NCBI GenBank assembly: GCA_964243385.1 | Contig: CAXTFU010000007.1 | Location: 1 to 36,732 of the forward strand | Origin: an uncultured bacterium | GTDB lineage: Bacteria; Actinomycetota; Actinomycetes; Mycobacteriales; SCTD01 | Length of the DNA: 36,732 bases | Direction: 5' to 3' | Shown here: piece by piece, positions 12,751 through 27,336 of the stretch | Position numbering within the stretch: the first letter of the stretch is position 1 | Layout of the letters: each line of letters begins with the position of its first letter | Notes under the pieces: model-generated | What the model was told of the DNA's origin: nothing | Database searches by the model: none | The model's input: the letters and a program-made list of their open reading frames with translations, nothing else | Translations under genes and position numbers: made by a program

Positions 12751-13127
12751 GGCAGGCTCCTCAGCGGCGTGCGGACGGTCGGCGCGCCGAGCGGCGAGTC
12801 TGGCACCGGCCGCCCTAGCGGCGGGGCGGCGGGCTCTTCCTCGGTGGTACGTCTCCCCGTCGACGGCTCTGTCAAGCGAGGATGACGACCGGCTCGCGGC
12901 GTCCGGTGCCCGCCCCCGGTCGGCTGCTCCCTCCGGCACCCCGGGCGTGCTCGTCGAACGCAGGCCCGTCGCTTGCAGCGGCCCTCCCGCGCCGCGTCCG
13001 CGTCCCCGGCCCGGGCCACGGCCAGGACGAGGCGCGAGGGCAGTCCGACCGCGGGCGGCGCGCGCGCCTCAGCGCCCGGGTCCGCGAACAGCCCGTCCGA
13101 CCAGCCCGACGTGCCAATATTGACTCC

Positions 13128-13140
13128 TTAACCGGGTTAA
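13128..13140. promoter_or_regulatory. Perfect inverted repeat TTAACC-G-GGTTAA upstream of hipB (candidate HipB operator)
   Basis: The 6-bp arms with a 1-nt spacer are seen directly in one of the few AT-rich patches of the window. A TTGACT hexamer lies at 13120-13125. The repeat sits 30 nt upstream of the hipB start. Confidence 0.4.
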
Positions 13141-13169
13141 GACGCCAGGACTGGCAACAAGGAGGCGCG

Positions 13170-13484
13170 GTGCCGACGAACCGTAGGACCCCCACCGCGG
13201 TAACCCGGGCGCTCGTGCGCCTGGGGGAGCAATTCGGCACATGGAGGCGGCTGCGGCAGCTGACCGTCGAAGAAGTGGCCGACCGCGCCGACGTCGGTTC
13301 GAGGACCGTGGCAAGGCTCGAGGACGGCCAGGGAGTCACCCTCGAGAACGCGCTGCGGATAGCGCGGGCCCTCGGCGTCCTCGACGTCCTGCTTGAGGCC
13401 CTCGACCCGTACGCGAGCGACGTCGGCCGCCTCCGGGCCGACGAAGCCCTTCCGGACCGCGTCCGCCGGGTCCGACGGCCATGA
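13170..13484 (+). CDS. hipB: XRE-family HTH antitoxin (HipB-like)
   Basis: The HTH reads LTVEEVADRADVGSRTVARLEDGQGVTLENALRIARALG. The GTG start has AAGGAGG upstream. Its stop overlaps the hipA ATG (ATGA at 13481-13484). Confidence 0.85.
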   Translation: MPTNRRTPTAVTRALVRLGEQFGTWRRLRQLTVEEVADRADVGSRTVARLEDGQGVTLENALRIARALGVLDVLLEALDPYASDVGRLRADEALPDRVRRVRRP

Positions 13485-14731
13485 CCGAGGCGCAGGTGTG
13501 GGCCGTCGCAGCAGGACAGGACCTGCGGGCCGGGACGCTGTACTCGCATCGCCGCCGGGGCGTCGAGTCGTCGACCTTCGCCTACCTGCCGGAGTACCTG
13601 GCCGCGCCAGGCGCCTGGTCCCTGGACCCCGAGCTGCCGTTGCGCAGCGGCGCCTTCCAGACGAGGGCCCGTGCGCCGTTGTTCGGCGCCTTCACCGACT
13701 GCGCACCGGACCGCTGGGGACGCACCTTGATGACCCGCCGGGAAGCCGCGCTGGCCCGCGCGCAGGACCGCGCCCAGCGCTCGCTCGGAGAAGCGGACTT
13801 CCTCCTGGGGGTCCGGGACGACCTCAGGCAGGGCGCCCTGCGGTTCCGGGACACCGGCGGCGACGGCCCGTTCCTGGCCGACGACGAGACGGGGGTCCCA
13901 GCGCTCACCGACCTGCCCGTCCTGCTCGACCTCGCGGCCCGCGCGGAGCGCGACACCGCGGACCTGCCCGACCTGCAACGGCTCATCCGGGTCGGCAGCT
14001 CGCTGGGCGGCGCCCGCCCGAAAGCGCACGTGCTCCGCCCCGACGGACGGGTCGCCATAGCCAAGTTCCCGAGCGCGGACCGCGACACCTGGAACGTGAT
14101 GGCGTGGGAGAAGGTTGCGCTCGACCTCGCGGACCGGGCGGGCATCACCGTCCCGGCGTCGACGCTGCTGCGCCTCGCGGACCGGAGCGTGCTCGTCCTG
14201 GACCGGTTCGACAGGGACCGCTCAGGCGGCCGCGTCGGCTACGCCAGCGCGATGACGATGCTCGAGGCTTCCGACGGGGACAGACGGTCCTACCTCGACA
14301 TCGCCGAGGTGGTGGAGTCCCGGTCCGGCAGGGCCACCGAGGAACTCGCCGAGCTCTGGCGCCGCGTCGTGTTCTCCGTCCTGATCTCCAACACCGACGA
14401 CCACCTGCGCAACCACGGGTTCCTTCATGTCAAGGGCGACGTGTGGCGCCTGGCCCCGGCGTTCGACCTCAACCCGGACCCGTCGCCCGGCCCGACGTAC
14501 CTCGCGACGGCCATCGACGACTCCGACGACGTCGCGAGCATCAACGCCGCCCTGGCGGTCGCCGACTTCTTCCGGCTGACGGATCAGCGGGCCCGGTCGC
14601 TGCTCGACGAGGTCGCGGGCGCCGTCTCCGCGTGGCAGGCGGTCGCCCGGTCCCACGGTCTCAGCCAGCGAGAGATCGACGGCATGGCGCCGGCCTTCGC
14701 CGCGCTGCGGGACGCGTCGACGCCTGCGTAG
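13481..14731 (+). CDS. hipA: Type II toxin-antitoxin system HipA-family serine/threonine kinase toxin
   Basis: HipA motifs are present: SLGGARPKA, NTDDHLRNHGFL (catalytic loop) and LAPAFDLNP. The N-terminal coupling domain includes FGAFTDCAPDRWGR. Confidence 0.95.
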   Translation: MTEAQVWAVAAGQDLRAGTLYSHRRRGVESSTFAYLPEYLAAPGAWSLDPELPLRSGAFQTRARAPLFGAFTDCAPDRWGRTLMTRREAALARAQDRAQRSLGEADFLLGVRDDLRQGALRFRDTGGDGPFLADDETGVPALTDLPVLLDLAARAERDTADLPDLQRLIRVGSSLGGARPKAHVLRPDGRVAIAKFPSADRDTWNVMAWEKVALDLADRAGITVPASTLLRLADRSVLVLDRFDRDRSGGRVGYASAMTMLEASDGDRRSYLDIAEVVESRSGRATEELAELWRRVVFSVLISNTDDHLRNHGFLHVKGDVWRLAPAFDLNPDPSPGPTYLATAIDDSDDVASINAALAVADFFRLTDQRARSLLDEVAGAVSAWQAVARSHGLSQREIDGMAPAFAALRDASTPA

Positions 14732-15447
14732 CCCGAACCGTCGCAAACGACCAGCAGCCACGCGGAGGGGCCGCCGTCGCCTGGCCGGTGCGGACCGCTG
14801 CCGGGAGCGGTGGTGCTCCCTCCTCCCGACCGATCCGTGCCCGCGGCGCGGCGCACGGGTGCCGCCGGACGTGTCTCGCAGCATGACCGGTCGACACGTG
14901 TCCGAAAGCGGTCGGCGAGCAGCCGCCGCCCCCGCTGGCGCCGAGCCCCGTGACGGCTGATCGACCCAGGGCGCCGCCGGACGACCCGTGACCTTGCGCG
15001 CGACCCGTCGCTCGCGCCCCCCCCCCGGCAGTCCAATGCCGTGGCCAGCCGACGGACGGGCTCGTCGGAGCGGACCGCTTGACTCGAGGCGGCTGTGACC
15101 GTCAGCACCGCCGCGGACGCATCGAGCGCCGCCCAGGCCCGCGCCCGGCGACCCGCAGCCACTTCCATGGCCCGCTGGCCGGCCCACTGACCCCCTGGCC
15201 ATCTCGACGGCGGCGTCGGGTCACAGACTTCAACGAGCAGCAGCGGGGCGCGCGCCGTCCAGATCAGACACGCGCGCGGGCCCCGGACGTCCGTCCGGGT
15301 CCGCTGCTGGCGAATACTGAGCGGCGGTGGCTGTTCGCCGCGCCGCGCGCTCGCCCGGCAGCGGCCAGACCGAAAGGCGCCCGCCCGCGCAGCGTCAGGT
15401 CCGCCCGCCGGCCCTGGTCGCCCCGAGCGGTGAGGCAAGATGTCGCC

Positions 15448-15762
15448 ATGGGCGCAGCAACCGGTCCGGCTGCCGGAACGGGTTGGCGACGGCGGCTCGC
15501 GTACGGGCTGGAACGCCGCCCGCTCGAGCCGCACCGCCCCTTGCCCTGGGTGCTGCGCGGCTTGTCGTGGCTTGCCGTGGCGACCGCCTGCGTCGGGTTC
15601 GGCGCAGTCGCGCCGCTCGTCGCCACCGACGCGTCCGCCGGCGCGACAGCAGTCGCGGCGAATGCGGGGGTCGCCTTGCTCGGAGCGGCCGCGGTCCTGC
15701 GGACATGCGCTCACCTCAGCCGACCGCTGCCGGTCGCGCTGGCGCCTGAGGACCGATCCTGA
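15448..15762 (+). CDS. Small hypothetical membrane protein
   Basis: It is the internal ATG-initiated part of track ORF 15079..15762. It has two hydrophobic helices (LSWLAVATACVGFGAVAPLVA and AVAANAGVALLGAAAVL). Third-position GC is coding-like. I recognise no family. Confidence 0.45.
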   Translation: MGAATGPAAGTGWRRRLAYGLERRPLEPHRPLPWVLRGLSWLAVATACVGFGAVAPLVATDASAGATAVAANAGVALLGAAAVLRTCAHLSRPLPVALAPEDRS

Positions 15763-15763
15763 C

Positions 15764-16279
15764 GTGATCCGCGTCTGGGCTGTCGCCTCCCTCGTGTCGG
15801 TGGTCATGTCCTCCGCGGCTTTCCTCAGCGCGCGCACAGGTCTGCGGAACCTGCGGGAGGCCGCCAGCGCACGTCGGCGCCCGCCGCTGGAGCCGGCGGA
15901 GGTCGCAGCAGGCGCGCGCCCGGTGTCCAGCGCGCCGACCGGATGGCCGCGACCGGCAGACATAGGCGACGCACCGCTGGCCGCGGCCTACCGCGACTAC
16001 GCCCGCGACCGCCGCGAGACGGCCGTCCTTCTCGGCGAACTGCTCATCCTCACCGCGGGCGCAGCCCTCGGCGCATCAATCCCTGATGCGCTCCGCGGCG
16101 GTTGGGAGAGCTGGCCGTTCCTCGCGGCGCTTCTTTTCGGTGCGCTCGGCGTGATACTCCGGCGTCGGGGCGAGGTCTGGTGGGTGCACGTGGCCGCGAT
16201 CTACGCGCGCCGTCTCGGGGACCTCCAGACGCCGCCCGTTCCACCGCCGGCCGTGCCGCCGTGGTGGCGCCGACGCTGA
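15764..16279 (+). CDS. Hypothetical membrane protein
   Basis: The GTG start lies 1 nt after the previous stop. It has TM helices (VWAVASLVSVVMSSAAFL, LLGELLILTAGAALGA and WPFLAALLFGALGVIL). I recognise no family. Confidence 0.5.
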   Translation: MIRVWAVASLVSVVMSSAAFLSARTGLRNLREAASARRRPPLEPAEVAAGARPVSSAPTGWPRPADIGDAPLAAAYRDYARDRRETAVLLGELLILTAGAALGASIPDALRGGWESWPFLAALLFGALGVILRRRGEVWWVHVAAIYARRLGDLQTPPVPPPAVPPWWRRR

Positions 16280-16802
16280 GCGCGCCCGTCAAGCCGGCCA
16301 CAGGACGCACCCCGGCAGCCAGACATCGAACTCCGGCCGCGGCCGCCGCGACGCGAGGGCGGCCCGGTCGCGGCGGGCGGGCCCCGAAGATGGGGCGCCC
16401 TGCCAGGCCAGGCGCATGCCCACCCGCTTGCTGTCCGTCCCGGACGCCGCAAGCGGCTGAACAGACGCAGACGCAGACGCGGCTGCGGACCTGCGGGCGG
16501 AGCCGCCGCGCCGGTTGCCGGTGCTCGCAGCGCACCGGCGGGAGCGCACGGGACCGGCCGCACGGAGCGCCGCCGCCCGGCTCGCACCACCGGGCGGGCA
16601 GGATGGGGCGCCGCACGGGCGTCCGCGACAGCACAGCGGTCGGCCGGCCCGCGGCGGCGCCCAGCCGCGATGCCGACGCCCGGGTGCCGCCCGGCGCCCG
16701 TCCACGCCTCCTGATCGGCAGATGCCCGCGACGATGCCTCCGCCCGGACCAGCCCGCACGGCCGACGCGCCCGTCGACCCCGGGCGGCCCGCCGGTCGGC
16801 GC

Positions 16803-17510
16803 TCAGCGCCCCGGCGCGTCCTCCCACAGCAGGACATGCCACCGGGGCGTGAGCGACCAGCCCCGTCGCAGGACGTCGTCAGCGATCCGGCGCGACGTGG
16901 ACAGGACGCCGGCGCCGGTCGTGCCCTCGGCCATGACGGTCACCCGTCGCATGCCGTGGCGGTCGACGAGGACCTGGGCTTCGTCGAGGTCGGCAGCGTC
17001 CCGGGCCACGAACTTGAACCAGACGTTGTCGCCGCCGGCGAAGGCGGCTAGCGCGTCGTCCCTTACGCGCCGTCGCAGCGGGACACCGCTGTGGGCGAGC
17101 TTCGGGCTGACGACGACCGTCTCGAAGGCCGAGAGCAGCCCGCCGGCCGGTACGTGCACGCCGGCCGTCTCGAGGTGCACGCGCCGGCCGGCCAGCGCGG
17201 GTTCGGCGAGGAGCGCCCGCACGCCGTCCTGCTGCGCCAACGGCTCGCCGCCGGTGACCACGACGATGCCGTGCGGGCCGGCGCGGCGGTCCGCCTCGAC
17301 GGCGGCCCGTCCGGTGTTCAGCGTCCGCGGAGGGGACGTCATGCGTGACGGGTCCCAGCTGTACGCGGTGTCGCACCAGGAGCAGGCCACGGGGCAGCCG
17401 GACAGTCTGATGAACGACGCGACGTGGCCGACGGCTGGGCCCTCGCCCTGGACCGTCGGCCCGAAGATCTCGCTCACCCTCAGACTCGGCTTGGTCGGGC
17501 CTCCGGTCAC
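16803..17510 (-). CDS. queE: 7-carboxy-7-deazaguanine synthase (radical SAM, QueE)
   Basis: The N-terminus reads SEIFGPTVQGEGPAVGHVASFIRLSGCPVACSWCDT, which contains the CX3CX2C radical-SAM cluster. VVVTGGEPL is also present, and the length of about 235 aa is typical. The GTG start overlaps the queD stop (GTGA at 17507-17510). The track ORF start at 17786 is over-extended. Confidence 0.9.
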   Translation of the reverse strand: MTGGPTKPSLRVSEIFGPTVQGEGPAVGHVASFIRLSGCPVACSWCDTAYSWDPSRMTSPPRTLNTGRAAVEADRRAGPHGIVVVTGGEPLAQQDGVRALLAEPALAGRRVHLETAGVHVPAGGLLSAFETVVVSPKLAHSGVPLRRRVRDDALAAFAGGDNVWFKFVARDAADLDEAQVLVDRHGMRRVTVMAEGTTGAGVLSTSRRIADDVLRRGWSLTPRWHVLLWEDAPGR

Positions 17511-17857
17511 GCCCGGGCCGCGGCTCTGCTCGTGGCGGTCTCCCAGACGGTGACCTCGCTCGCGGGGAGCCCGGCCGTCCTGAGCCAGTCGAGGAAGGTC
17601 ACCGCGAGCACCTCGGCGGTCGGGTTCGGCACGAGGTCGTTCAGGAGCGTGTGGTCGCACTTGTCGACGACCTCGCGTCGGACGACGGACCCGAGGTCGG
17701 CGAAGTCCATGACGATCCCGTTCGCGTCGAGGTCGCCGCTCACGGTGACCTCGATGCGGTAGCTGTGCCCGTGGAGCCTGCCGCACTTCCCAGGGTGCCA
17801 GGGGAGGACGTGCGCGGCCTCGAAGCGGAACGCCTTGGTGATGGATACGGAGGGCAC
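17507..17857 (-). CDS. queD: 6-carboxy-5,6,7,8-tetrahydropterin synthase (QueD)
   Basis: The sequence ITKAFRFEAAHVLPWHPGKCGRLHGHSYRIEVTVSG...MDFADL...DH fits the T-fold QueD/PTPS family, including the CxxxHGH zinc and catalytic motif. The protein is 116 aa. It is the 3' end of the 511-aa track ORF 17507..19042, most of which is artefact. Confidence 0.9.
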   Translation of the reverse strand: MPSVSITKAFRFEAAHVLPWHPGKCGRLHGHSYRIEVTVSGDLDANGIVMDFADLGSVVRREVVDKCDHTLLNDLVPNPTAEVLAVTFLDWLRTAGLPASEVTVWETATSRAAARA

Positions 17858-17881
17858 CGGGGCAGGGTACCCACGACAGAA

Positions 17882-17891
17882 ATACATGTAT
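17882..17891. promoter_or_regulatory. Perfect 10-bp palindrome ATACATGTAT in the 43-bp divergent queD / XRE intergenic region (candidate operator and promoter core)
   Basis: It is seen directly and is the only AT-rich patch in the locus. TATAGT (17889-17894) fits an actinobacterial TANNNT -10 element and ends 6 nt before the ATG at 17901. That spacing suggests a leaderless transcript for the XRE gene. Confidence 0.4.
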
Positions 17892-17900
17892 AGTAATCGC

Positions 17901-18203
17901 ATGGCGCGATCAGGGCAAACGGAGGCGGACCGGGAGTACGGGGCCAGGCTCGGGCGGGCGCTGGCGGCGGCCCGAGCCGGCACCGGCCTGAGCGGCGGGC
18001 AGTTGTCGGACCGGTGCGGGGTCAGCGTCGACGCGATACGCAGCGTCGAGAGCGGCCGCGTCGCCAGCCCGGGCTTCCCGCTCGTCGCCGCGCTCGGGGG
18101 CGCGCTCGGGGTCTCGCTGGACGCCTTGGCGCTGCAGGCCGCGGACTCCGACCACCGGACCGCCCGCGCGACGGCCGCCGGCCAGACCCGGGGCCGGCGA
18201 TGA
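17901..18203 (+). CDS. XRE-family HTH transcriptional regulator
   Basis: The XRE-type HTH reads LSGGQLSDRCGVSVDAIRSVESGR. The protein is 100 aa. Its stop overlaps the next ATG (ATGA at 18200-18203). Confidence 0.8.
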   Translation: MARSGQTEADREYGARLGRALAAARAGTGLSGGQLSDRCGVSVDAIRSVESGRVASPGFPLVAALGGALGVSLDALALQAADSDHRTARATAAGQTRGRR

Positions 18204-19063
18204 GCGCCGCCGCTGCGCTCCGGCCGACGCTCCCAGCGGGCGCCGGGCACGGCCCGCACGGGTCCCGAGGACGTCTGGAGGGCTTGCGCGTATCGCCCGA
18301 CCTGCGGCGCGACGTCTGGTGGGGCCAGCCCTGGCAGCTCGCCACCGCGTCCTACTGGACGGCGCTCGCGCTGGCGCTGCCGGGCCCGGCCACCTACCGG
18401 CTCGGCCGCACGCTCGACGAGGAGGTCGCCGCGTGTCTCCTGGGCGGCCACGGCATCCCGGGACCGATCGGGAACGCCGCGTTCCGCGCGGTGCGGGACG
18501 CCGGCCTCCTCGACGGAGCTCCCGTCCCGGGGCCCGAGCCAATCGAGCGCCTGCTGCGCCAGCCGCTCACGGTCCGCGGAGCAACCATGAGATACCGGTT
18601 CCCTCGCCAACGGGCGCGGCGGCTGTCGGCCGCGCTCGGCCACGTCCGATCTTCGGCGCCGCCCGAGGACGACGTCGAGCTCCGGGACTGGCTCACCGGC
18701 GCCCCTGGCATCGGAATGAAAACGGCGAGCTGGGTCGTCCGTAACCACCGCGCCAGCGACCGCGTCGCGATCATCGACGTCCACGTGCAGCGGGCCGGGA
18801 CCGCCGCCGGCGTCTTCGATCCGGCGTGGCGGCTGCCCCGCCAGTACACGCTGCTCGAGCGGGCGTTCCTTGCCTGGGCGGCGGCAGGCGGGGTCTCCGC
18901 GGCCCGCCTCGACGCCTGCATCTGGGCCGAGCTGGCCGGGGCCGGTGCCCACGCGCGCGACGTCCTCGGGGTCGCGCGCCTGTCCGACACGCCCGTTCCG
19001 GTATGGCCGTGCGCGCAGAGCGCTGGCTTCGGCGCCCCGCATCCGGCCGGGCCGCCGACGTGA
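18200..19063 (+). CDS. HhH-GPD superfamily N-glycosylase/DNA lyase, Ogg2 type (COG1059-like)
   Basis: From memory it aligns block by block with archaeal Ogg (M. jannaschii type). The blocks are CLLGGHGIPGPIGN, YRFPRQRARRL, LRDWLTGAPGIGMKTASWVVRNHRASDRVAIIDVHVQRA (HhH, with Lys in GMKTAS and Asp in IIDVH) and LPRQYTLLERAFLAWAAAGGVSAARLDACIW. Confidence 0.8.
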   Translation: MSAAAALRPTLPAGAGHGPHGSRGRLEGLRVSPDLRRDVWWGQPWQLATASYWTALALALPGPATYRLGRTLDEEVAACLLGGHGIPGPIGNAAFRAVRDAGLLDGAPVPGPEPIERLLRQPLTVRGATMRYRFPRQRARRLSAALGHVRSSAPPEDDVELRDWLTGAPGIGMKTASWVVRNHRASDRVAIIDVHVQRAGTAAGVFDPAWRLPRQYTLLERAFLAWAAAGGVSAARLDACIWAELAGAGAHARDVLGVARLSDTPVPVWPCAQSAGFGAPHPAGPPT

Positions 19064-19133: not shown

Positions 19134-19460
19134 GTGAGCGGTAGCGATCCGAGCGTGCAGCGGACGGGCTCGGGCGGGGAAGGGGCCGACGAGTGCCCCG
19201 GGCAGGCCTTCGAAACGGTCCTGGCATCGCCGGAACCTGATGCGGTCGCCGGGCTCGAGGCAGACGACCTCCTGGACATCGTCGCGGTCGACGCCCCCAC
19301 CCGCGGCGTGCACGCCCGGACACTCGACGGCGCCTACGTGGGCGCCGTCGTCAGGGACATCGCCCGGCTGCGTCGCTGCATCGCGTCCGGCAGCCGCTAC
19401 GAGGCGGACGTCGTGCGCGTGGCAGGCGGATCAGTGACAGTCGTGGTGCGGTCCGCGTGA
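19134..19460 (+). CDS. Small hypothetical protein (108 aa)
   Basis: The in-frame GTG has GGAG 5 nt upstream. Composition is acidic and balanced (ETVLASPEPDAVAGLEADDLLDIVAVD...YVGAVVRDIARLRRCIASGSRYEADVVRVAGGSVTVVVR). Its stop overlaps the next start (GTGA at 19457-19460). I recognise no family. Confidence 0.5.
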   Translation: MSGSDPSVQRTGSGGEGADECPGQAFETVLASPEPDAVAGLEADDLLDIVAVDAPTRGVHARTLDGAYVGAVVRDIARLRRCIASGSRYEADVVRVAGGSVTVVVRSA

Positions 19461-20683
19461 TCGTCGTCGGCGGCACCTACCGCGAAGAGGTCGCGCTCCC
19501 GTCCTGGGTAGCGCTCGCAGGCTCCGGCCTGAGGGCCGCCGCCGCGCTGAGCCAGGCTCCCGTGCCCCCCGGGCTCCTCACCGCGCTTGACGACGACACG
19601 CAGGACGAGGCGGAGCTGGTCTGCGACGCGCTCGGCGTCGTCGTCAACAGCGCGGTCGATCGCACCGAACCGGTCGGCTTCAGCTACTTCACGCCGCTCA
19701 GCGCCCCCCGGGTGAACGGGCCGAAGTCGCGCCTGCGCAACGGCCTGCGCGGCGAGGACGACACGGTCCTGGCGTTCGGGCTCGTCGAAGCCGGAGACGT
19801 CGTCCTGCGCGGCCGCACCGTCGTGCTGGACCCGCAGCGCCCGCGCGACCTCGCGCCGTTCTCGGCGGACAACGTCGAGGCTGACCGCTTGGTCGTGGTC
19901 GCCAACACGAGCGAGATCCGTCAGTTCGGGGAGGCGACCGGTGAACGAGAGGCGGCCGAGGCGCTGCTCGGGCGGGGCGTCGACGCCGTGATCACGAAGC
20001 GTGCCGCGGCCGGGTGCACCGTGAGCTGGCTGGAGGGCTCCGCGGCCCGGCACGAGGACGTCGGGGCTCGCCCGACCGCCAGGGTCTGGCCGATAGGCAG
20101 CGGCGACGTGTTCTCCGCCGGGCTCGCGCACGCCCTCGACCGCGGCGCGGACCTCGTGGAGGCGGCGCGCGTCGGGTCGGCCGCGGCCGCGCACTGGTGC
20201 TCTACGCAGGTAGCGGCCCTGCCCGGGCCGATCCTCGCCGGAACCGCCGCCGACCTGCCAGCCCCGCTTCCGCCCGCCCGGCCGCTGGTCTATCTCGCCG
20301 GGCCTTTCTTCTCGGCAGGCGAGCGGTGGCTCGTCGAGGAGCTGCGCACGAGCCTGCGCAGCCTCGGCGTGGACGTCTTCTCGCCTCTGCACGACGTCGG
20401 CACCGGAGGGCCCGAGGTGGCGCAGGCAGATCTGGACGGCCTGCGCCTGTGCGACTCCGTCCTCGCCCTCCTCGACGGCGCGGATCCCGGCACGGTCTTC
20501 GAGGTCGGCTGGGCCGTCCGTGACGGGACGCCCGTCGTCGGCTACGCGACCGCGCTCGACGCGGAGGTCAGCAAGATGATGTCCGGCACCGAAGTCGAGC
20601 TGCACCGTGACCTTTCCACCGCCTGCTACCGCGCGGCGTGGGCGGGCATGGGCATGCGCGTCGTTCCCGGCTGGGCCGGATGA
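19457..20683 (+). CDS. Fusion protein: PfkB-family sugar/nucleoside kinase domain plus nucleoside 2-deoxyribosyltransferase-like domain
   Basis: The N-terminal ~265 aa have the ribokinase/PfkB fold signature WPIGSGDVFSAGLAHAL (GxGD catalytic motif). The C-terminal ~130 aa carry NDT-family motifs VYLAGPFFSAGER and DGADPGTVFEVGWA, which retains the conserved Glu. That motif is followed by GTPVVGY. Confidence 0.85.
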   Translation: MIVVGGTYREEVALPSWVALAGSGLRAAAALSQAPVPPGLLTALDDDTQDEAELVCDALGVVVNSAVDRTEPVGFSYFTPLSAPRVNGPKSRLRNGLRGEDDTVLAFGLVEAGDVVLRGRTVVLDPQRPRDLAPFSADNVEADRLVVVANTSEIRQFGEATGEREAAEALLGRGVDAVITKRAAAGCTVSWLEGSAARHEDVGARPTARVWPIGSGDVFSAGLAHALDRGADLVEAARVGSAAAAHWCSTQVAALPGPILAGTAADLPAPLPPARPLVYLAGPFFSAGERWLVEELRTSLRSLGVDVFSPLHDVGTGGPEVAQADLDGLRLCDSVLALLDGADPGTVFEVGWAVRDGTPVVGYATALDAEVSKMMSGTEVELHRDLSTACYRAAWAGMGMRVVPGWAG

Positions 20684-21324
20684 CCGCCGCGGACGGCCGT
20701 CGCCTCTCCCTGCTGCTGCTCTCCGGCGGGCTCGACAGCACCGCGCTCGCCGCCCGTGACCGCCCCGACCTCACCCTGTTCGTCGACTACGGGCAGCGCC
20801 CGGCGCGCGCCGAGGCGAGGGCAGCCGGTGCTGTCGCCGCAGAGCTCGGGCTGCCGCACGCACGCGTGCGCGTCGACGCGACCGCCGTCGGGTCCGGGCT
20901 CATGTCCGCGACCGAGTCCTCGGCCAGCAACGCCCGTCCCAGCCCCGAATGGTGGCCATTCCGCAACCAGCTCCTCGTCACGGTCGCCGCCGCCTGGCTC
21001 GTCCGGTCCGGCCACATAGGCCCGGACGGCCCCGGCGCCGACATAGCCGTCGGCTCCGTGCGGCAGGACGGCAGGCGCCATCTCGACGGAACCGCCGCTT
21101 TCTACGCGGCGCTCGACGCGCTGCTGCGGACCCAGGAATTCAGCATCGGCTGCGTCGCGCCCGCCCTGGACCAGTCGACGGAGGACCTGGTCACAGCCGG
21201 CGCGACCACCGACGCCGTACTCGGGTGGACCCACTCGTGCCATGTCGCCGACGCCCCGTGCATGGCCTGCCCCGGCTGTCACAAGCGCGAGCAGGTGCTC
21301 GATGCCGTCGGGCGGCTGAGATGA
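20680..21324 (+). CDS. queC: QueC-like 7-cyano-7-deazaguanine synthase family protein (PP-loop ATPase)
   Basis: The PP-loop is LLLSGGLDSTAL. DYGQR and WWPFRNQLLVTVAAAW (compare FVPGRN in QueC) are present. The C-terminal zinc cluster SCHVADAPCMACPGCHKR follows C-x6-C-x2-C-x2-C. It has ATGA overlaps at both ends (20680 and 21321). Confidence 0.85.
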   Translation: MTAADGRRLSLLLLSGGLDSTALAARDRPDLTLFVDYGQRPARAEARAAGAVAAELGLPHARVRVDATAVGSGLMSATESSASNARPSPEWWPFRNQLLVTVAAAWLVRSGHIGPDGPGADIAVGSVRQDGRRHLDGTAAFYAALDALLRTQEFSIGCVAPALDQSTEDLVTAGATTDAVLGWTHSCHVADAPCMACPGCHKREQVLDAVGRLR

Positions 21325-22253
21325 AGGAATCGGCTGCGAGCCCGACCGTCGCCCCGCTTGCCCCGGAAGGCGACCACCTGACGATCCGGCTCGACGCCAA
21401 CGGGGCAGCCGCAGGCACCGATGACGGCACCATGTGGGCGCTCGGCCACGAGACGGCCGCCCGGATCCGCGAGCTCGCGTCCTCGCTTCGCCCCGCCGTC
21501 GGCGCTGAAGGCCCGACTCCCGCCGCGCGGGCGTCCTACGGCGAGGCCGACCGGCTCCGGATCGTCGACTCCGCGGACGCCCCCGCCGTCGCCACCCCGA
21601 CGGACCACTGGGTCCAGCGACTCGCCGCCGACGTCTGCCGACCGGTGCCGTCGCCGCCCCGCCGGCCCCGCGCGCCGTCGCGGCCGCTCGACCAGGTGCT
21701 CACGGAACGCGCCTCGCGGGCCGGCACAGGCCCGGTCCCCGGCGACACCCTCCACGTCCTCCTCGAACGGCTCCGCGAGCCGAGGCAAACCGCCCTGGAC
21801 GCCGCCGGACGGGCCTGGGAGAGCCGCCCCTACCCCTCGGCCGGAGGCACCCACAGCCTCGACGTACTCGTCCTCGCCAGGCACGTCACGGGCTGGCGCA
21901 ACGGCTGGTACAGGTGGCAGCCCCACGACGGCCCGGTGCCCGTCCTCCCGCCGCGGACCCGCGACGCCGTCACGGCCATCGGCCTCGCGCTCCGCGGCCG
22001 GGAGACCAGCGCGTACCTGCTCGCGGTCGCCGACCTGCCGCTCCTGCACGCCCGCTACCCGAACGGCGCCGCCCTCGGCTGGCGCGACGCGGGCTGCCTG
22101 CTCGCGACCGCCCACCTCATCGCGACCGACCTCGGCCTCGCTTCCACGATCGTCGGCGCGACCGCCGCGCTCGACCCTGCCTGCGGCAGCGCCCGTCCCG
22201 GCGACATACGCCTGCTCGGCGCGCTCGCCCTCGCCGGCCCTCCGGCCACGTGA
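21321..22253 (+). CDS. SagB/ThcOx-type nitroreductase-superfamily protein with a ~140-aa N-terminal extension
   Basis: The sequence RPYPSAGGTHSLDVLVLARHVTGWRNGWYRWQP...YLLAVADL...GWRDAGCLLATAHLIATDLGLAS matches the SagB-type dehydrogenase pattern (R-x-x-PSAG...Y.Y). I do not recognise the N-terminal part. Confidence 0.7.
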   Translation: MKESAASPTVAPLAPEGDHLTIRLDANGAAAGTDDGTMWALGHETAARIRELASSLRPAVGAEGPTPAARASYGEADRLRIVDSADAPAVATPTDHWVQRLAADVCRPVPSPPRRPRAPSRPLDQVLTERASRAGTGPVPGDTLHVLLERLREPRQTALDAAGRAWESRPYPSAGGTHSLDVLVLARHVTGWRNGWYRWQPHDGPVPVLPPRTRDAVTAIGLALRGRETSAYLLAVADLPLLHARYPNGAALGWRDAGCLLATAHLIATDLGLASTIVGATAALDPACGSARPGDIRLLGALALAGPPAT

Positions 22254-22801
22254 ACGCCAGGAAGCACCGCCGCGGTGAGGACGCTCCCGCCAAGGACGCC
22301 GCCGAGCTCGACCTCCTCCCGCGCGGCCCCCAGCCCAGGACGGTCACCGTCACCCGAGACGGCGTGGAGGGCGCGGCGCCCCAGGCGCCCGAAGGCAGCG
22401 TCGACGTCGCCTCCGTGACCGTGGCCGGACGGAGCGTCAGGGCTTACGAGCTGATGGCCCTCGCAGCGGGACGGCGCACAACCGAGATCAGCAGCCGCCA
22501 GGCGGTGCGGGCCTTGCAGGAGATGGGCTTCGCCGTCACCGGCCCCGCCGGCGGCGCACGCCCGCCGGCAGCCTCACCGCAAGGGCCCGGAGCGCCCGCG
22601 CCGTCCGAGCAGCCGGTACTTGACCCGCGAACGGCCAAGGACCTGCGGCGTTACCCGGGCGAGTGGGTCGCCGTGCGAGGACGGCACATCGCGGCGCACG
22701 GCCCGAGCCTTCGGGCCGTGCTCGCCGAGGCCCGGCCCAGCGAGGACGACCCGGCAACGGTGCTCTGGGTGCCGCGCGGCGCCGGCGAGGCACGCGCATG
22801 A
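22250..22801 (+). CDS. Hypothetical protein with a DUF5678-like C-terminal domain
   Basis: The GTG start overlaps the previous stop (GTGA). The C-terminus YPGEWVAVRGRHIAAHGPSLRAVLAEARPSEDDPATVLWVP fits the W-V-A-h...G...h-h-A-x-G...L...h...A pattern I associate with DUF5678. The central part is low-complexity. Confidence 0.55.
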   Translation: MNARKHRRGEDAPAKDAAELDLLPRGPQPRTVTVTRDGVEGAAPQAPEGSVDVASVTVAGRSVRAYELMALAAGRRTTEISSRQAVRALQEMGFAVTGPAGGARPPAASPQGPGAPAPSEQPVLDPRTAKDLRRYPGEWVAVRGRHIAAHGPSLRAVLAEARPSEDDPATVLWVPRGAGEARA

Positions 22802-23205
22802 AGTTCCCGTTCGGCACGCTGCCGCTGCAAGCGGCCCGCAGGCCAATCGTCAGCGTCACCTTCCCCGGACTGCCCGGCGTCCGCGTCCCGGCGCTCGTAG
22901 ACAGCGGAGCCACAGCCAACCGCTTCGACGTCGCGTTCGCCCAGCAGCTCGGGCTCGACCTGACCCAGGCCCGACAGCAGACGCTGAGGATCGCAGGCGG
23001 CCAATACTTCGCCCACGTCCTCGAGACCCGGCTCCGCGTCGGACGATGGGAGTGGCAGGCGCCCGTCGGATTCGTCGAGGGATGGACGCACCCTCACGGC
23101 GTCCTAGGCATCGACGGCTTCTTCGACCGCTTCACGGTCAGGTTCGAGGCCGCGTCGTCGTATCTCGTGGTCCAGAGCAGGTCCCGGCAGGGCAAGGACC
23201 TCTGA
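22798..23205 (+). CDS. Retropepsin-like (clan AA) aspartic protease
   Basis: The active-site motif is ALVDSGATAN (D-S-G-A), and the downstream motif is GVLGIDGFFDRF (hhG-x-D). The size of 135 aa fits a single-lobe, homodimeric retropepsin-like fold. The start overlaps the previous stop (ATGA at 22798-22801). Confidence 0.7.
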   Translation: MKFPFGTLPLQAARRPIVSVTFPGLPGVRVPALVDSGATANRFDVAFAQQLGLDLTQARQQTLRIAGGQYFAHVLETRLRVGRWEWQAPVGFVEGWTHPHGVLGIDGFFDRFTVRFEAASSYLVVQSRSRQGKDL

Positions 23206-23980: not shown

Positions 23981-24973
23981 TCACCGGGCGTCGAGGGCGA
24001 GCTCCCTGCGGTCGCCGAACAGGCCCTGCGGCCTGAAGATCATGAGCAGCATGAGCCCGAGGCCGACGAGCATGAAGCGCACCTGGCCGATCTCGGAGGT
24101 GGTGAGGACGGTGTCGGAGATGTACCCCGCCGACTTGGCCTGCGTGAGGACGTTGTCGGTGAGGGACAGCAGCGTCCAGAAGATCATGGCGCCGATGACC
24201 GGTCCGAGCACGCGGGCGGCGCCGCCGAGGATGACGATCGTGTAGGCGAAGAACGTCGTCTCGGTGCCGAAGAAGTCGGGCTGGACGGCGGCGTTGCCCC
24301 AGGCGGTGACGAACCCGGCGAGGCAGCCGAGCGTGCCGCCGAGCACGAGGCTCTGCAGCTTGTACGAGTAGACGTCCTTGCCGAGGCTGCGGACGGCGTC
24401 CTCGTCCTCGCGGATGGCCTTCAGGACGCGTCCCCACGGGCTGCGCATGAGCATGAACACCAGCAGGCACGACAGGGCTACGAGCGTCCAGCCGACGGTG
24501 AGCGCCCAGGTCGCCCGTTCGTTGAACGCGACGCGGCCGATGCCGTAGCGCCCCTCGCCGTAGGGGTTGATGGAGTAGAAGCCTGCGGCGAACCGCCCGA
24601 GGCCGTCCGAGCCGCCGGTGTACTCCAGCAGCGTGGCCGACCGGAACAGCATGCGGACGATCTCGGCGGCGGCGATCGTGACGATCGCGAGGTAGTCGGC
24701 GCGCAGGCGCAGCGTCGGCGCGCCGAGCAGCACCGCCAGCAGGACCACGCCGAGCAGGCCCACGGCGACGCCGGCCAGGGTCGGCAGGCCGAACGTCGCC
24801 ACTGTGATCGCGAGCCCGTACCCCGCGACGGCCAGGAACGCCGACTGGCCGAAGTTCAGCAGGCCGGTGTAGCCGAAGTGCACATTCAGGCCGATCGCCG
24901 CGAGGGCGAACACGACCGTGTCGAGGCCCACCATCGCGCGCAGCGCGTTGGTGATGATCAGTCCCCAGTCCAT
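23981..24973 (-). CDS. livM: Branched-chain amino acid ABC transporter permease (LivM-type)
   Basis: The sequence GLNVHFGYTGLLNFGQSAFLAVAGYG...REDEDAVRSLGKDVYSYKL... is typical of LivM/BraE permeases, and there are multiple TM segments. Confidence 0.9.
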   Translation of the reverse strand: MDWGLIITNALRAMVGLDTVVFALAAIGLNVHFGYTGLLNFGQSAFLAVAGYGLAITVATFGLPTLAGVAVGLLGVVLLAVLLGAPTLRLRADYLAIVTIAAAEIVRMLFRSATLLEYTGGSDGLGRFAAGFYSINPYGEGRYGIGRVAFNERATWALTVGWTLVALSCLLVFMLMRSPWGRVLKAIREDEDAVRSLGKDVYSYKLQSLVLGGTLGCLAGFVTAWGNAAVQPDFFGTETTFFAYTIVILGGAARVLGPVIGAMIFWTLLSLTDNVLTQAKSAGYISDTVLTTSEIGQVRFMLVGLGLMLLMIFRPQGLFGDRRELALDAR

Positions 24974-25317
24974 GACGCCCGCCCGTCAGCCGGCGCGGCC
25001 GGCGCGGCGCGAGGTCCCCTGGGGCCGAGCGAGCAGGACGGTCGAGGTGGTCGGCGCGCAGGCGGCCCGGGACCGGCCGTGGACGGTCGTGCCGGAGGCG
25101 CCCGGCGCCGCGGGCGGGAGCGGCTCGCCGGGCGCTACGGGCGGCGCCGCGGCTGTGGCGCGAGAGGTTTTAGGCACGCGAGATCTCCTGTCGTCGGGGC
25201 TGTCCGTCCGCGTGGGACTTCCAGCGAGAAGCCGCCGGGCCGGTGTCCGGCCAGGCGGTTGGTACGCCGCTGCCCTCGGGCAAGAGCCGGGGGCGCGTCC
25301 TGGCGGCACGCCGGCCG

Positions 25318-26163
25318 TTAGCCGACCATGCGGTTGCTCAGCACCCCTAGTCCTTCGACCTCAACCTCGACGACATCCCCGTCCCGCAGCCACGGCTGCC
25401 CGGCGCGACCCTCGGCGACCCCGGCCGGCGTCCCCGTGGCAATGATGTCGCCCGGCTCGAGGGTGAAGTACGCGCTGCAATAGCTCACCAGCTCCGCGAC
25501 CCCGAAGATCATGTCTGCCGTGCTGCTGCTCTGCACCTGGACCCCGTTGACGCGGCAGGAGACGTGCAGCGACTGCGGGTCGTCGACCTCGTCGGCGGTG
25601 ACCACGTGCGGTCCCAGGGGCAGGAACTGGTCGGCGGTCTTGCCGAGCAGCCACTGGCTGCTGCGGAACTGCAGGTCCCGGATGCTGAGGTCGTTCGCGT
25701 TGCAGTACCCGAAGACGTGTCCCAGAGCGTCCGACGGGGATACGGCGCGGGCTCGTGCTCCAATGACGACGCACAGCTCGGCTTCGTAGTCGAACTGCTC
25801 GGACGCGCCGGTCGGCAGCACGATGTCTTCTCGGTGGCCGGCCAGGGCGTTGGAGAACTTGCCGAAGACCACCGGCTGAGCCGGCAGCTCGGACCCGGTC
25901 TCCTTAACGTGGCCCCGGTAGTTCAGGCCGATGCAGACGATCTTTCCGGGAGCGGGGACGCACGGCGCGTGCACGACGGTCGAGGGGTCGAGGACGACCG
26001 CGCCGGCCAGCCCGGACGACAAGGCGTCCCGCGCCGCGCCGCCGCCGTCGATGAGGGCCCGAAGGCTCCGCGGACCGCCCGCGGCTTCCGCGTCGACCAC
26101 TCCGGACCCGGTGACGACGCCAAGTCGGTCGCCGTGGGCCGTGCGCATCGTGACGAGCTTCAT
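25318..26163 (-). CDS. Fumarylacetoacetate hydrolase (FAH) family protein
   Basis: FAH-family motifs are present: KIVCIGLNYRGH, DYEAELCVVIG, GYCNANDLSIRDLQ and LEPGDIIATGTPAGV. GGGAGG lies upstream of the ATG. Confidence 0.92.
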   Translation of the reverse strand: MKLVTMRTAHGDRLGVVTGSGVVDAEAAGGPRSLRALIDGGGAARDALSSGLAGAVVLDPSTVVHAPCVPAPGKIVCIGLNYRGHVKETGSELPAQPVVFGKFSNALAGHREDIVLPTGASEQFDYEAELCVVIGARARAVSPSDALGHVFGYCNANDLSIRDLQFRSSQWLLGKTADQFLPLGPHVVTADEVDDPQSLHVSCRVNGVQVQSSSTADMIFGVAELVSYCSAYFTLEPGDIIATGTPAGVAEGRAGQPWLRDGDVVEVEVEGLGVLSNRMVG

Positions 26164-26184
26164 CGGGGCCTCCCGGCGCGGGAA

Positions 26185-27336
26185 TCAGGCATTGCGGGCG
26201 GCGAAGTCGACGATTCGGCGACAGCCCTCGATGATGTCGTCGTCCGAGGCCGCGAGGGAGATCCGCACGAGGCCCTCGGCGGACTCGCCGAACGCGCTCC
26301 CCGGCACGCACGCGACGCGTTCCTCCTGCAGGAGGGCCAGCGCCAGGTCGCGGCTCGTCGATCCGGCGCGGCGGAGATCGACCATCGCGTAGAAGGCTCC
26401 GTGCGGCCGCACGGGAAGCAGGCCGGCCGGGCCCAGCAGTGCCTCCGCCGCGCCGCGTCGCCGCCGGTAGGTGTCGCGCATCATTTCCGCGTCGCCCTGG
26501 GGTCCGGACAGCGCCGCGAGCGCCGCGGCCTGCGACACGGACGACGCGCAGGTGACGAGGGGTTCCTGGACCGTCCCCGCGAGCCGCACGAGCTCGGGGG
26601 CCGCGACCAGCCAGCCCAGCCGCCACCCCGTCATGGCGTAGGTCTTCGAGACGCCCGAGACGCTGACGACGCGCCCGTGCGGATCCTTCGCGCGGGCGGG
26701 GACGTGCGCCCCGTCGAAGACAAGGTCCTCGTAAATCTCGTCGCTGATGACCCAGAGGTCGTGCTGGTCCGCGAAGCCCATCACGGCCGCCACGGTCGCC
26801 TCGTCCCACACGGACCCGGTCGGGTTCGACGGGTTGCACAGCAGGAGCACCTTGGTCCTCGGGGTCAGGAGCCCGGCCATCTGCGTCAGGTCGGGGCGGT
26901 AGCCGTCAGCGGCCGCGAGCCTGTAGGGAACAGCAGTGGCGCCGGTGAGCGCCGCCACGCTGCGGTAGTTCGGCCATCCCGGGTCGGGCACGAGCATCTC
27001 GTCGCCTCGGTCGAGCAGCGCGAACGCCGCAGCGGCGATGGCGTTGACCGCCCCGTGCGTCACCAGGACCTCGTCAGGGGAGACGTCCGTCGACCACTTC
27101 CGTGCGTACCGCTGGGCGATCGCGGCCCTGAGCGACGGCAGGCCGAACGACGACGTGTACCCGGTTCCGCCTGCCAGCGCAGCGGCCAGCGCCGACTCGA
27201 CGATGTGGTCGGGCGTGCGGAAGCTCGGCTGCCCGACCTCGAGGTGGACAACCCCCGGGAGCGTGCTAGCGAGCTCGATGATCTCTCGGATGCCGGACCC
27301 CGGCATGGACTGAGCGGACGAAGACAGCGGCTTCAA
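26185..27336 (-). CDS. Class I/II PLP-dependent aminotransferase (aspartate/aromatic type)
   Basis: The motifs are LLLCNPSNPTG and the PLP-lysine motif SVSGVSKTYAMTGWRLGW. The track start is a TTG at 27336, and ATG 27306 is an alternative. A 21-nt gap to the FAH gene suggests an operon. Confidence 0.93.
   Translation of the reverse strand: MKPLSSSAQSMPGSGIREIIELASTLPGVVHLEVGQPSFRTPDHIVESALAAALAGGTGYTSSFGLPSLRAAIAQRYARKWSTDVSPDEVLVTHGAVNAIAAAAFALLDRGDEMLVPDPGWPNYRSVAALTGATAVPYRLAAADGYRPDLTQMAGLLTPRTKVLLLCNPSNPTGSVWDEATVAAVMGFADQHDLWVISDEIYEDLVFDGAHVPARAKDPHGRVVSVSGVSKTYAMTGWRLGWLVAAPELVRLAGTVQEPLVTCASSVSQAAALAALSGPQGDAEMMRDTYRRRRGAAEALLGPAGLLPVRPHGAFYAMVDLRRAGSTSRDLALALLQEERVACVPGSAFGESAEGLVRISLAASDDDIIEGCRRIVDFAARNA

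Follow-up and report, generated by a model that had tools for sequence, protein, structure and literature searches.

The stretch of DNA analysed here (the window) comprises the 36,732 nucleotides of contig CAXTFU010000007.1 from an uncultured bacterium of the Actinomycetota, and its middle part carries an operon in which the gene for an Ogg-like protein, a predicted DNA glycosylase/lyase of the helix-hairpin-helix (HhH-GPD) type, stands among genes connected with 7-deazaguanines. Because the window has a G+C content of ~75%, raw lists of open reading frames (ORFs) are full of shadow frames, and genuine reading frames were picked by codon-position GC. The following features make up the locus:

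16803-17510, minus strand: QueE-like radical-SAM enzyme, 7-carboxy-7-deazaguanine (CDG) synthase type, start at 17510 or 17477 (Pfam Radical_SAM and Fer4_12)
17507-17857, minus strand: QueD/6-carboxytetrahydropterin synthase (PTPS family), 116 residues (Pfam PTPS, E 1e-31)
17858-17900, no strand: divergent spacer of 43 nt between the QueD and XRE genes (read from the sequence)
17901-18203, plus strand: XRE-family helix-turn-helix (HTH) regulator, ORF open from a TTG at 17835, probable start ATG at 17901 (Pfam HTH_31, 9e-10, and HTH_3)
18200-19063, plus strand: Ogg2-fold HhH-GPD glycosylase/lyase-like protein, 287 residues, with Lys174 and Asp193 (Pfam, PDB profile, AlphaFold2 model)
19134-19460, plus strand: small HIRAN-like protein, 108 residues (GTG start, GGAG 6 nt upstream, AlphaFold2/Foldseek)
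19457-20683, plus strand: PfkB (ribokinase-family) kinase fused to a nucleoside 2-deoxyribosyltransferase (NDT), 408 residues (Pfam Nuc_deoxyrib_tr, 4e-17; PfkB, 3e-12)
20680-21324, plus strand: QueC-like PP-loop ATPase (Pfam QueC, 79 bits; ATGA overlaps on both sides)
21321-22253, plus strand: SagB-type (nitroreductase-fold) flavoprotein dehydrogenase-like protein, 310 residues (TIGR03605, 9e-13; Pfam Nitroreductase, weak)
22250-22801, plus strand: DUF5678-containing protein at the operon end (Pfam DUF5678, 6e-6; GTGA overlap with the upstream gene)
22798-23205, plus strand: retropepsin-like aspartic protease with a DSGA motif (Pfam Asp_protease_2, 4e-8; ATGA overlap with the upstream gene)

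The Ogg-like ORF runs on the plus strand from an ATG at 18200 to a TGA that ends at 19063, and the codon-position GC of this frame (GC3 ~0.84-0.98, GC2 ~0.58) gives a coding signal. Its start codon (18200-18202) overlaps the stop codon of the XRE gene (TGA, 18201-18203) in an ATGA, a coupling already pointed out in an earlier prediction made from the sequence alone (hereafter the original prediction) and legible in the letters themselves. That prediction was also right to place the gene in one operon with QueC-like and NDT-like genes, with QueD and QueE transcribed divergently, but it overlooked the gene at 19134-19460, the PfkB half of the fusion, the SagB-like gene and the subfamily to which the QueC-like protein belongs. 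A gap of 70 nt separates the Ogg-like gene from the small-protein gene, whose stop codon in turn overlaps the PfkB-NDT start (GTGA). The same genes recur elsewhere as a cassette, (XRE)-Ogg-like-small protein-PfkB/NDT-QueC-like-SagB-like, accompanied at some loci by QueD/QueE or by a YhhQ-like gene.

The Ogg-like protein and its Ogg2 relatives

Fold and catalytic residues place the Ogg-like protein in the Ogg2 branch of HhH-GPD enzymes, as originally proposed, and a Pfam match, a PDB profile search and a structural model agree on this. The protein matches Pfam PF22175 (Ogg-HhH) at E 1.3e-10 (41.5 bits, cut-off 27), and its family profile finds the Ogg/abasic-site (AP) lyase 9o00 in the PDB at E 1e-16 and MjOgg at 4e-11; by sequence, the nearest solved structures are this 8-oxoguanine (8-oxoG) glycosylase/AP lyase, MjOgg, SsoOgg and TM1821. 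An AlphaFold2 model built on 98 sequences (predicted local distance difference test, pLDDT, 92.3) has TM1821, MjOgg and SsoOgg as its top structure matches (probability 1.0, template-modelling (TM) score 0.60-0.65 on the target), with ~24% identity over 182-207 aligned columns. The alignment at the level of sequence spans only residues ~110-247, the N-terminal half being alike by fold only.

In common with the Ogg2 enzymes (MjOgg, 3FHF/3KNT; SsoOgg, 3FHG; TM1821, 3N0U; families PF22175 and NF002305), the protein has a two-domain HhH-GPD fold that lacks the A-domain of OGG1, a catalytic lysine in the hairpin and a catalytic aspartate about 19 residues further on, and both share the motifs RF, K..AS..RN, AIID.H..R, Y...E and D...W. 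The two catalytic positions, which the original prediction had called intact, are Lys174 within GIGMKTAS (codon AAA, 18719) and Asp193 within IIDVH (codon GAC, 18776); they align with the lysine and aspartate mutated in PDB entries 9o01, 9o02 and 3knt, and are unchanged in all 98 relatives used to gauge residue conservation. The shared motifs suggest a similar catalytic core, and we predict that the gene product is a catalytically competent glycosylase/AP-lyase of the Ogg2 fold.

The features that confer 8-oxoG specificity on Ogg2 enzymes are another matter. Their hallmark is a lysine strictly conserved at the C-terminus, which senses the N7-H of 8-oxoG through its carboxylate, and truncation of this residue abolishes excision of 8-oxoG while AP-lyase activity is kept (PMC3397491). 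None of the 98 Ogg-like relatives ends in lysine; instead, 9-68 residues (median 23) follow the invariant Trp242, whose counterpart in Ogg2 lies in the ...IW motif near the C-terminus. Relative to Ogg2, the window protein carries additions at both ends, namely residues 1-40 (a disordered stretch followed by an extra N-terminal beta-hairpin) and a C-terminal extension (residues 257-287), and in the PHROGs database its C-terminus matches one family of unknown function. Against the NCBIfam Ogg2 equivalog NF002305 it scores 49.1 bits, below the cut-off of 183. Since the protein fails both the specificity feature and the equivalog threshold, we do not class it as an Ogg2 8-oxoG glycosylase. The base pocket may still be guanine-shaped but changed in the region near position 7, and a remodelled position-7 sensor would suit a base that bears a C7 substituent.

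These observations bear directly on the possibility that the gene encodes an ordinary housekeeping 8-oxoG glycosylase that merely lies beside deazaguanine genes. Many of its active-site residues are indeed common with Ogg2, and the Pfam and source labels of its relatives read 'N-glycosylase/DNA lyase' or 'thermostable 8-oxoguanine DNA glycosylase'. Yet the 8-oxoG sensor is missing, the score falls far under the equivalog cut-off, the gene is translationally coupled within an operon and, as described below, its clade is confined to 0.19% of species genomes and keeps the same neighbourhood in 75-78 of 80 genomes across phyla. We consider a repair role extremely improbable.

Distribution of the cassette and its partner proteins

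Relatives of the Ogg-like protein were found in 348 of 185,579 species-representative genomes (0.19%), and when 1.84 billion cluster representatives were searched exhaustively with a profile, only 275 reached E <= 1e-30. The best 80 of the 348 genome matches form our Ogg-anchored sample, to which all locus counts out of 80 refer. They come from Actinomycetota, Acidobacteriota, Planctomycetota, Chloroflexota and several classes of Proteobacteria, two of them being plasmid-borne. When cassette genes were counted with hidden Markov models built from the cassette, the small protein accompanied the Ogg-like gene (80 loci) in 78, PfkB-NDT in 77, the QueC-like gene in 75, the SagB-like gene in 60, QueD and QueE in 29 each, and a YhhQ-like gene (queuosine-precursor transporter family) in 8, most of the misses being contig ends. 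Two gene orders recur. In one, represented by the window, every gene points the same way and the Ogg-like gene leads; in the other, frequent outside Actinomycetota, the series small protein, PfkB-NDT, QueC-like and SagB-like converges on a separately transcribed Ogg-like gene, and it is this separate, convergent arrangement that many Proteobacteria and Acidobacteria show. In pairwise comparisons the divergence of the Ogg-like protein tracks that of the QueC-like protein (r 0.77) and of PfkB-NDT (r 0.80; Mantel p <= 0.001), and the correlation between QueC-like and PfkB-NDT themselves is about equal (r 0.81).

The reverse sample, drawn from metagenomes with the QueC-like protein as anchor, contained 36 loci with both flanks complete, and the Ogg-like gene was present in 29 of them. 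From the two samplings together it follows that the small protein, PfkB-NDT and the QueC-like protein form the minimal core, and that the Ogg-like gene is a very frequent accessory, near-universal in bacterial cassettes. In this respect the clade differs from Ogg2 proper, which is archaeal and housekeeping, whereas Ogg-like proteins are mostly bacterial and bound to the cassette. The flanks of the 80 genome cassettes hold no further conserved partner; what they do hold are phage integrases, D12 adenine methyltransferases, Mrr, MmeI, AspBHI-type and Shedu-type (SduA_C) nucleases, as well as AAA_15/AAA_21 ATPases, a CAP12/Pycsar TIR domain, DUF4917, relaxases, resolvases and plasmid partition genes. 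Among the 2.9 million viral contigs of IMG/VR, nine carry an Ogg-like relative and four of these the whole cassette. A rare, patchy and mobile distribution in defence-rich surroundings is typical of conflict systems, unlike housekeeping repair or salvage, and we think it probable that the cassette is a conflict or defence system. That the Ogg-like protein is a dedicated component of this cassette, and no 8-oxoG repair enzyme, we hold with high confidence: the recruited role first suggested for it is borne out by partners kept in 75-78 of the 80 genomes across several phyla, by a divergence that tracks theirs, by the rarity and patchiness of the clade and by the loss of the 8-oxoG-sensing lysine.

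The small protein has no match in Pfam (window protein and two relatives searched; no family, HIRAN included) and is labelled only 'hypothetical protein' in databases. Its N-terminus reads M-S-G-S in the window, M-S-G-[SGN] in 61 of the 78 genome loci that have the gene, and M/V-[SG]-G-[SGT] nearly everywhere; there follow a Gly-rich segment of variable length and a domain with two highly conserved cysteines. In two alignments, of 61 and 59 sequences, Gly3 and Cys82 never vary; the former also has Cys21 and Gly70 invariant, while in the latter Gly70 reaches at least 90% and Cys21 stays below 90%. In the AlphaFold2 model (pLDDT 86) residues 1-20 are disordered, and Foldseek places HIRAN domains at the top of the matches in both the PDB (the HLTF HIRAN domain with and without DNA, and bacterial lp_0118) and BFVD (phage and giant-virus 'HIRAN domain' proteins), with TM 0.6-0.69, probability 1.0 and E 4e-3 to 6e-3. 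As no Pfam family is matched, the HIRAN assignment, and with it the likeness to HLTF-type domains, is one of fold alone. HIRAN is a module that binds the 3'-OH ends of DNA.

The QueC-like protein falls below the threshold of the canonical QueC model TIGR00364 (54, cut-off 150) and carries in the window the motifs LSGGLDS, DYGQRPARAE and CHVADAPCMACPGCHK, the last of which corresponds to CH(x)5CxxCxGCxK. This cysteine-rich motif (SCHVADAPCMACPGCHK) is present in 72 of 75 relatives, and SGGxDS, YGQ...E and WPxRNQ are conserved in the family. The tyrosine of YxQ and the arginine of PxRN, both essential in Escherichia coli QueC, are kept, whereas the aromatic residue of the YPDC motif, judged by motif position, is seemingly replaced (H-x-D-G). 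Family scans found no canonical QueC, QueF, tRNA-guanine transglycosylase (TGT) or DpdA among the genes of the window operon; given this and the established roles of QueD and QueE, the encoded pathway ends at CDG. The motif CH(x)5CxxCxGCxK defines 'Cluster 4' of the QueC family, which is uncharacterised and has PfkB-NDT (89%), HTH proteins (31%) and nitroreductases (23%) as neighbours (Libby et al., Biochem J 2026, PMC13329287). With SGGxDS, YGQ...E, this same motif and an adjacent PfkB-NDT fusion, the window protein fits that cluster. Neither the Ogg-like gene nor the small protein is mentioned by these authors, including in their neighbourhood table as searched (PMC13329287). Literature searches returned no other paper on this cassette. 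The obligate Ogg-like partner, the HIRAN-fold acceptor-like protein, the link between Ser2 and the SagB-like gene described below, and the reading of the cassette as a third protein-deazaguanylation system appear to be undescribed in the literature searched.

The PfkB-NDT family conserves GsGD in the kinase and YlA.PFF ... Gt..E.G in the region of the NDT nucleophile. The textbook chemistry of such a pair leads from a base to a deoxynucleoside and on to a nucleotide, by way of N9. This logic suits a pathway for small molecules, in which the QueC-like enzyme would modify CDG, the NDT domain would make the nucleoside and PfkB the monophosphate, the product being a free 7-deazaguanine (deoxy)nucleoside or nucleotide used for salvage or serving as an analogue with antiviral or antibiotic action. 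The Ogg-like enzyme would in that case purge the analogue from the cell's own DNA (self-immunity) or free the base from nucleotides, and excision of incorporated deazaguanine would also account for the lost N7-H sensor. QueD/QueE or a YhhQ-like transporter adjoin the genes, and purine salvage is the published interpretation (PMC13329287). Such a pathway leaves unexplained a near-universal small protein with a near-invariant N-terminus and a disordered tail, as well as the link between its residue 2 and the SagB-like gene; moreover, no export or resistance gene is conserved, and the rare, patchy and mobile spread is unlike salvage. We therefore rate this explanation as unlikely. A related candidate, a cluster for a toyocamycin- or tubercidin-like deazapurine antibiotic, was rejected, as the loci belong to many phyla, lack a phosphoribosyltransferase and purine-salvage-like tailoring genes, and conserve neither an export nor a resistance gene.

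Residue 2 of the small protein varies together with the SagB-like gene. It is serine in the great majority, Gly/Ala/Val in 10 of the 78 genome loci, and Gly/Cys in 10 metagenome loci. A SagB-like gene accompanies ~53 of 61 genome loci and ~32 of 41 metagenome loci in which residue 2 is Ser/Thr, and none of the 10 genome loci with Gly/Ala/Val or of the 10 metagenome loci with Gly/Cys; in the pooled comparison of the window gene across loci L005-L164 the figures are ~85/102 with Ser/Thr2 and 0/20 with Gly/Ala/Val/Cys2. The Gly/Ala/Val2 genome loci mostly carry the YhhQ-like transporter in place of QueD/QueE.

Possible functions of the cassette

QueC-family enzymes have only recently been found to join a nucleobase to the N-terminus of a protein, as demonstrated for type IV cyclic-oligonucleotide-based antiphage signalling systems (CBASS) and strongly suspected for Qat. 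In the former, Cap9 ligates CDG to the N-terminal amine of the cGAS/DncV-like nucleotidyltransferase (CD-NTase) after removal of the methionine, and QatC very probably ligates CDG to QatB likewise. The acceptors CdnD and QatB have disordered N-terminal tails with the extreme N-termini MGGS and MGTS, and the small protein shares the design of these CBASS IV and Qat acceptors, with a conserved small-residue N-terminus on a flexible tail. We propose it as the acceptor of the deazaguanine, and through it Cluster 4 may be linked to the modification of protein N-termini. The likeness to QatABCD lies in the pairing of a QueC-family enzyme with a partner that has a lengthy disordered N-terminal tail and a conserved motif at its very start (MGTS in Qat, MSGS here); the differences are that the QatA ATPase and the QatD TatD nuclease are missing here, that QatB has a helical fold and the small protein a HIRAN-like beta fold, and that the short QueC-like enzyme of the cassette keeps YxQ and PxRN, both of which QatC has lost. 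The Dpd system (DpdA/B/C) offers a further comparison, in that a QueD/QueE pathway lies beside DNA-directed proteins and a DpdA-family gene occurs at one Ogg-less locus (L104, below). The window, however, holds no DpdA, DpdB or DpdC and, without a canonical QueC, preQ0 is not obviously made.

A close parallel for the Ogg-like gene itself is Cap11, the OGG-like protein that about one in three type IV CBASS operons encode. Its deletion leaves defence and modification in place while toxicity rises; in the authors' suggestion, Cap11 undoes a subsequent transfer of the protein-borne base, which has a free N9 (Wassarman et al. 2025 preprint, 10.1101/2025.04.06.647259). As in the cassette, an OGG-family gene lies there beside a QueC-family gene in a 7-deazaguanine system and is accessory rather than universal, although it is present in ~80-100% of the cassettes as against about one third of the CBASS operons. 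The partner in type IV CBASS is a TGT-like protein, where the cassette has the PfkB-NDT fusion. The parallel with type IV CBASS drawn in the original prediction is thus sound as far as Cap11 in the literature goes, but it does not extend to the genes at hand: the PADLOC OGG model PDLC00910 matches neither the window protein nor two relatives at E <= 10 (an archaeal Ogg fragment matches it weakly, at 1.5e-3), and no CD-NTase, Cap10/TGT or CBASS effector is present in the window operon or recurrent in the flanks of the 80 loci. The Ogg-like protein resembles Cap11 in its context and probably in its role, but for these reasons we regard it as an analogue of Cap11 and not as its orthologue.

Cassettes that lack the Ogg-like gene and Ogg-like genes that lack the cassette both inform the role of the enzyme. 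The seven Ogg-less loci among the 36 metagenome loci belong to a low-GC, archaeal-looking variant, in which the small protein contains a pair of HIRAN-like repeats along with a long acidic linker and begins with MGGG or MCGG, and in which there is no SagB-like gene. At one of them (L104:1603-6582) a DpdA-family gene (PF23859, 71 bits) and an Mrr-like nuclease lie beside the core trio, and another (L141:288-10882) is situated between McrB/McrC-like genes and a Dam-type methyltransferase. DpdA as a general substitute for the Ogg-like enzyme was rejected, as it occurs in L104 only; a tblastn search with the L104 DpdA gave no clear homologue in the other loci, the marginal match in L016 (24% identity, E 3.6e-4) lying ~9 kb from the Ogg-like gene. 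Conversely, a phage contig from IMG/VR (L171:5657-6822; GC 0.39, with ThyX and terminase genes) carries an Ogg-like gene and neither a QueC-like nor a PfkB-NDT gene. Directly after it comes an unrelated 103-residue protein that starts MSGSGGGG; this was rejected as a member of the small-protein family since the match is confined to its first 11 residues. The two phage genes could be a counter-defence pair of eraser and decoy.

If the enzyme were a writer, it would open a guanine site through a Schiff base at C1', at which deazaguanine, free or protein-borne, would be exchanged in or cross-linked, and it would stand in for transglycosylases of the TGT/DpdA type (Cap10, DpdA). No TGT or DpdA accompanies it in the window or in Ogg-containing loci, while L104, which lacks it, has the DpdA-family gene and the Mrr-like nuclease; its HhH DNA-binding motif and catalytic dyad are conserved, and the HIRAN-like fold of the small protein points to DNA. 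Base exchange, however, is no known HhH-GPD activity, the DpdA gene is found at just one of the seven Ogg-less loci, and both the phage-borne gene and the Cap11 phenotype suit an eraser better, all of which makes a writer quite improbable. If the enzyme were instead an effector, a toxin that when triggered depurinates and nicks phage or host DNA in abortive infection, the deazaguanine module would only regulate it. Invariant glycosylase/lyase residues, a coupling to the XRE gene that suggests tight repression and defence-island-like surroundings are in keeping with such a toxin. But the archaeal-type variants retain the core trio while lacking the Ogg-like gene, so that another component must be able to serve as output; a phage is unlikely to carry its host's toxin, and the coupling with the operon's leading gene hints at joint expression with the repressor. 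We judge an effector role very improbable. An eraser is preferred over both because the core trio exists without the Ogg-like gene, because that gene is often a separate transcription unit, because the phage contig carries it alone together with the MSGSGGGG protein, and because loss of Cap11 raises toxicity with defence intact.

The supply of CDG, a ligase with an acceptor-like partner, the NDT and PfkB activities, a fold for DNA ends and a glycosylase without its sensor together lead us to propose that the conjugate becomes, or is attached to, a nucleotide or DNA. QueD and QueE, with the GTP cyclohydrolase of the host, would by homology provide CDG. The QueC-like ATPase would join it, once the initiator methionine has been removed, to the alpha-amine of the small protein's residue 2, as Cap9 does with CdnD and QatC probably with QatB; the M-S-G-S/G N-terminus conserved on a disordered tail is what suggests this step. 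Where residue 2 is serine, the SagB-like flavoprotein might oxidise the product, for example from an oxazoline to an oxazole, a speculative step prompted by the co-variation described above. SagB-type enzymes oxidise peptide azolines derived from Ser, Thr and Cys, and the second half-reaction of QueC is an ATP-dependent amide dehydration; given that QueC dehydrates amides, an N-acyl-serine could conceivably undergo cyclodehydration to an oxazoline, from which oxidation would give an oxazole. To judge from domain chemistry, NDT would add 2'-deoxyribose at N9 of the protein-borne base and PfkB would phosphorylate it, and the HIRAN-like domain may, by its fold, guide the conjugate to DNA 3' ends. 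The Ogg-like enzyme would read the guanine-like face of the 7-substituted 7-deazaguanine in DNA and cut its N-glycosidic bond by means of Lys174/Asp193. In doing so it would erase or limit the adduct and act as a negative regulator or in self-protection, like the role proposed for Cap11. The XRE protein would repress the operon.

As a whole, the reading in which a dedicated Ogg-like eraser or regulator belongs to a horizontally mobile protein-deazaguanylation cassette, likely directed against phages, is our best explanation, with a probability of roughly 0.4. Its parts fare differently. N-terminal deazaguanylation of the small protein has slightly better than even odds, and action of the Ogg-like enzyme on a deazaguanine glycosidic bond somewhat less than even odds; that the enzyme is specifically an eraser is doubtful. 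The most detailed version would be a long shot: a third QueC-based family of protein-nucleobase conjugation and a hitherto unrecognised anti-phage system, in which Ser2 of the HIRAN-like protein is acylated with CDG, cyclised and oxidised to a deazaguanine-oxazole by the QueC-like and SagB-like pair, and deoxyribosylated at N9 and phosphorylated by PfkB-NDT into a protein-borne nucleotide that is set at DNA 3' ends, the Ogg-like protein being a dedicated eraser of the adduct that phages could steal as counter-defence.

Several points weigh against this reading. The mechanism is inferred from sequence, models and analogy. To our knowledge NDT enzymes act on free nucleosides and nucleotides, not on protein-borne bases, and the steps catalysed by the QueC-like enzyme and by PfkB-NDT could run in the reverse order. 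The acceptor residue is Ser2 here and Gly2 in both characterised systems, the likeness of the small protein to HIRAN domains is by fold only (~10% identity, E ~6e-3), and the co-variation of Ser2 with the SagB-like gene may stem from few evolutionary events. Correlated divergence of the cassette proteins could in part mirror species phylogeny. The parallel with Cap11 is an analogy only, the PADLOC OGG model being unmatched, and Cluster 4 has been read as purine salvage (Libby et al., PMC13329287). Finally, at least three relatives with adequate flanks lack the cassette: besides the phage contig L171, these are a Rhizobiaceae metagenome-assembled genome (L070:10001-10615) and a viral contig (L165:165-788), both with several kb of flank and no detectable cassette genes. 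Stand-alone homologues, which the original prediction had named as a sign against a recruited role, do therefore exist beside the 75-78 of 80 that have the neighbours, and not every member of the Ogg-like clade is bound to the cassette.

The cassette nonetheless has the look of a third type of protein-deazaguanylation conflict system, and it touches two questions in the field, namely the fate of the free N9 on the conjugated base and the role of the OGG-like Cap11. It pairs a QueC-like enzyme with a maker of the N9-glycosidic bond (the deoxyribosyltransferase-kinase) and a breaker (the Ogg-like glycosylase), and adds a candidate acceptor protein with a DNA-end-binding fold. Being compact, free of the CBASS signalling layer and often equipped with its own CDG supply, it is a tractable model, of interest for phage defence, for 7-deazaguanines and for DNA glycosylases. 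If our reading is true, the Ogg-like proteins form a new Ogg2-derived subfamily with a specificity shifted from 8-oxoG, the label 'thermostable 8-oxoguanine DNA glycosylase' on some named relatives is to be corrected, and the 'purine salvage' reading of QueC Cluster 4 is to be revised.

Surroundings of the operon

On the minus-strand side, the start of the QueE-like gene overlaps the QueD stop (GTGA), and the GTG at 17857 gives QueD a length equal to that of its homologue in L001. The spacer between QueD and the XRE gene is AT-richer and contains, read by eye, a candidate operator, the perfect 10-nt palindrome ATACATGTAT at 17882-17891, which lies 10 nt before the ATG of the XRE gene; an inverted-repeat finder reported nothing in these 43 nt. 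Between 16600 and 23700 a sigma-70 consensus scan found no promoters, and a terminator scan gave merely two overlapping terminator-like sites at chance level, inside a gene. The Rfam and tRNA scans of the window were empty, so that we find no preQ1 riboswitch and no tRNA integration site in it. The XRE protein has weak PADLOC matches to HTH_VI and capH, and an HTH gene lies immediately upstream of the Ogg-like gene in L001-L004 and, by tblastn, in ~29 of the 80 genome loci. Apart from such weak HTH models, PADLOC v2.0.0 returned only its generic QueC model for the operon proteins, and the cassette is not a PADLOC system; with PHROGs, the remaining matches of the operon proteins were just generic NDT and QueC-like families.

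At the far end of the operon, a tblastn screen of neighbours in 84 loci detected a homologue of the DUF5678 protein in two (L001 and L006) and of the aspartic protease in five (L001, L005, L006, L012 and L027), and these two genes are lineage-specific add-ons.

About 2 kb upstream of the cassette, at 12819-14731, a HipB-like HTH gene is followed by a HipA-family kinase toxin (HipA_C, 8e-46), which weakly matches the PADLOC candidate PDC-M03A. The ~2 kb between HipA and QueE (14732-16800) have no clear codon-position GC periodicity in any frame, though long ORFs are found on both strands, and may be non-coding or decayed sequence at the edge of the cassette. Farther out, the window holds ordinary genes for transport and metabolism. 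To the right of the cassette (24000-36732) the G+C content is ~0.69-0.71, down from ~0.75, and an IS1595-family transposase (DDE_Tnp_IS1595, 7e-32) is encoded at 27920-28897.

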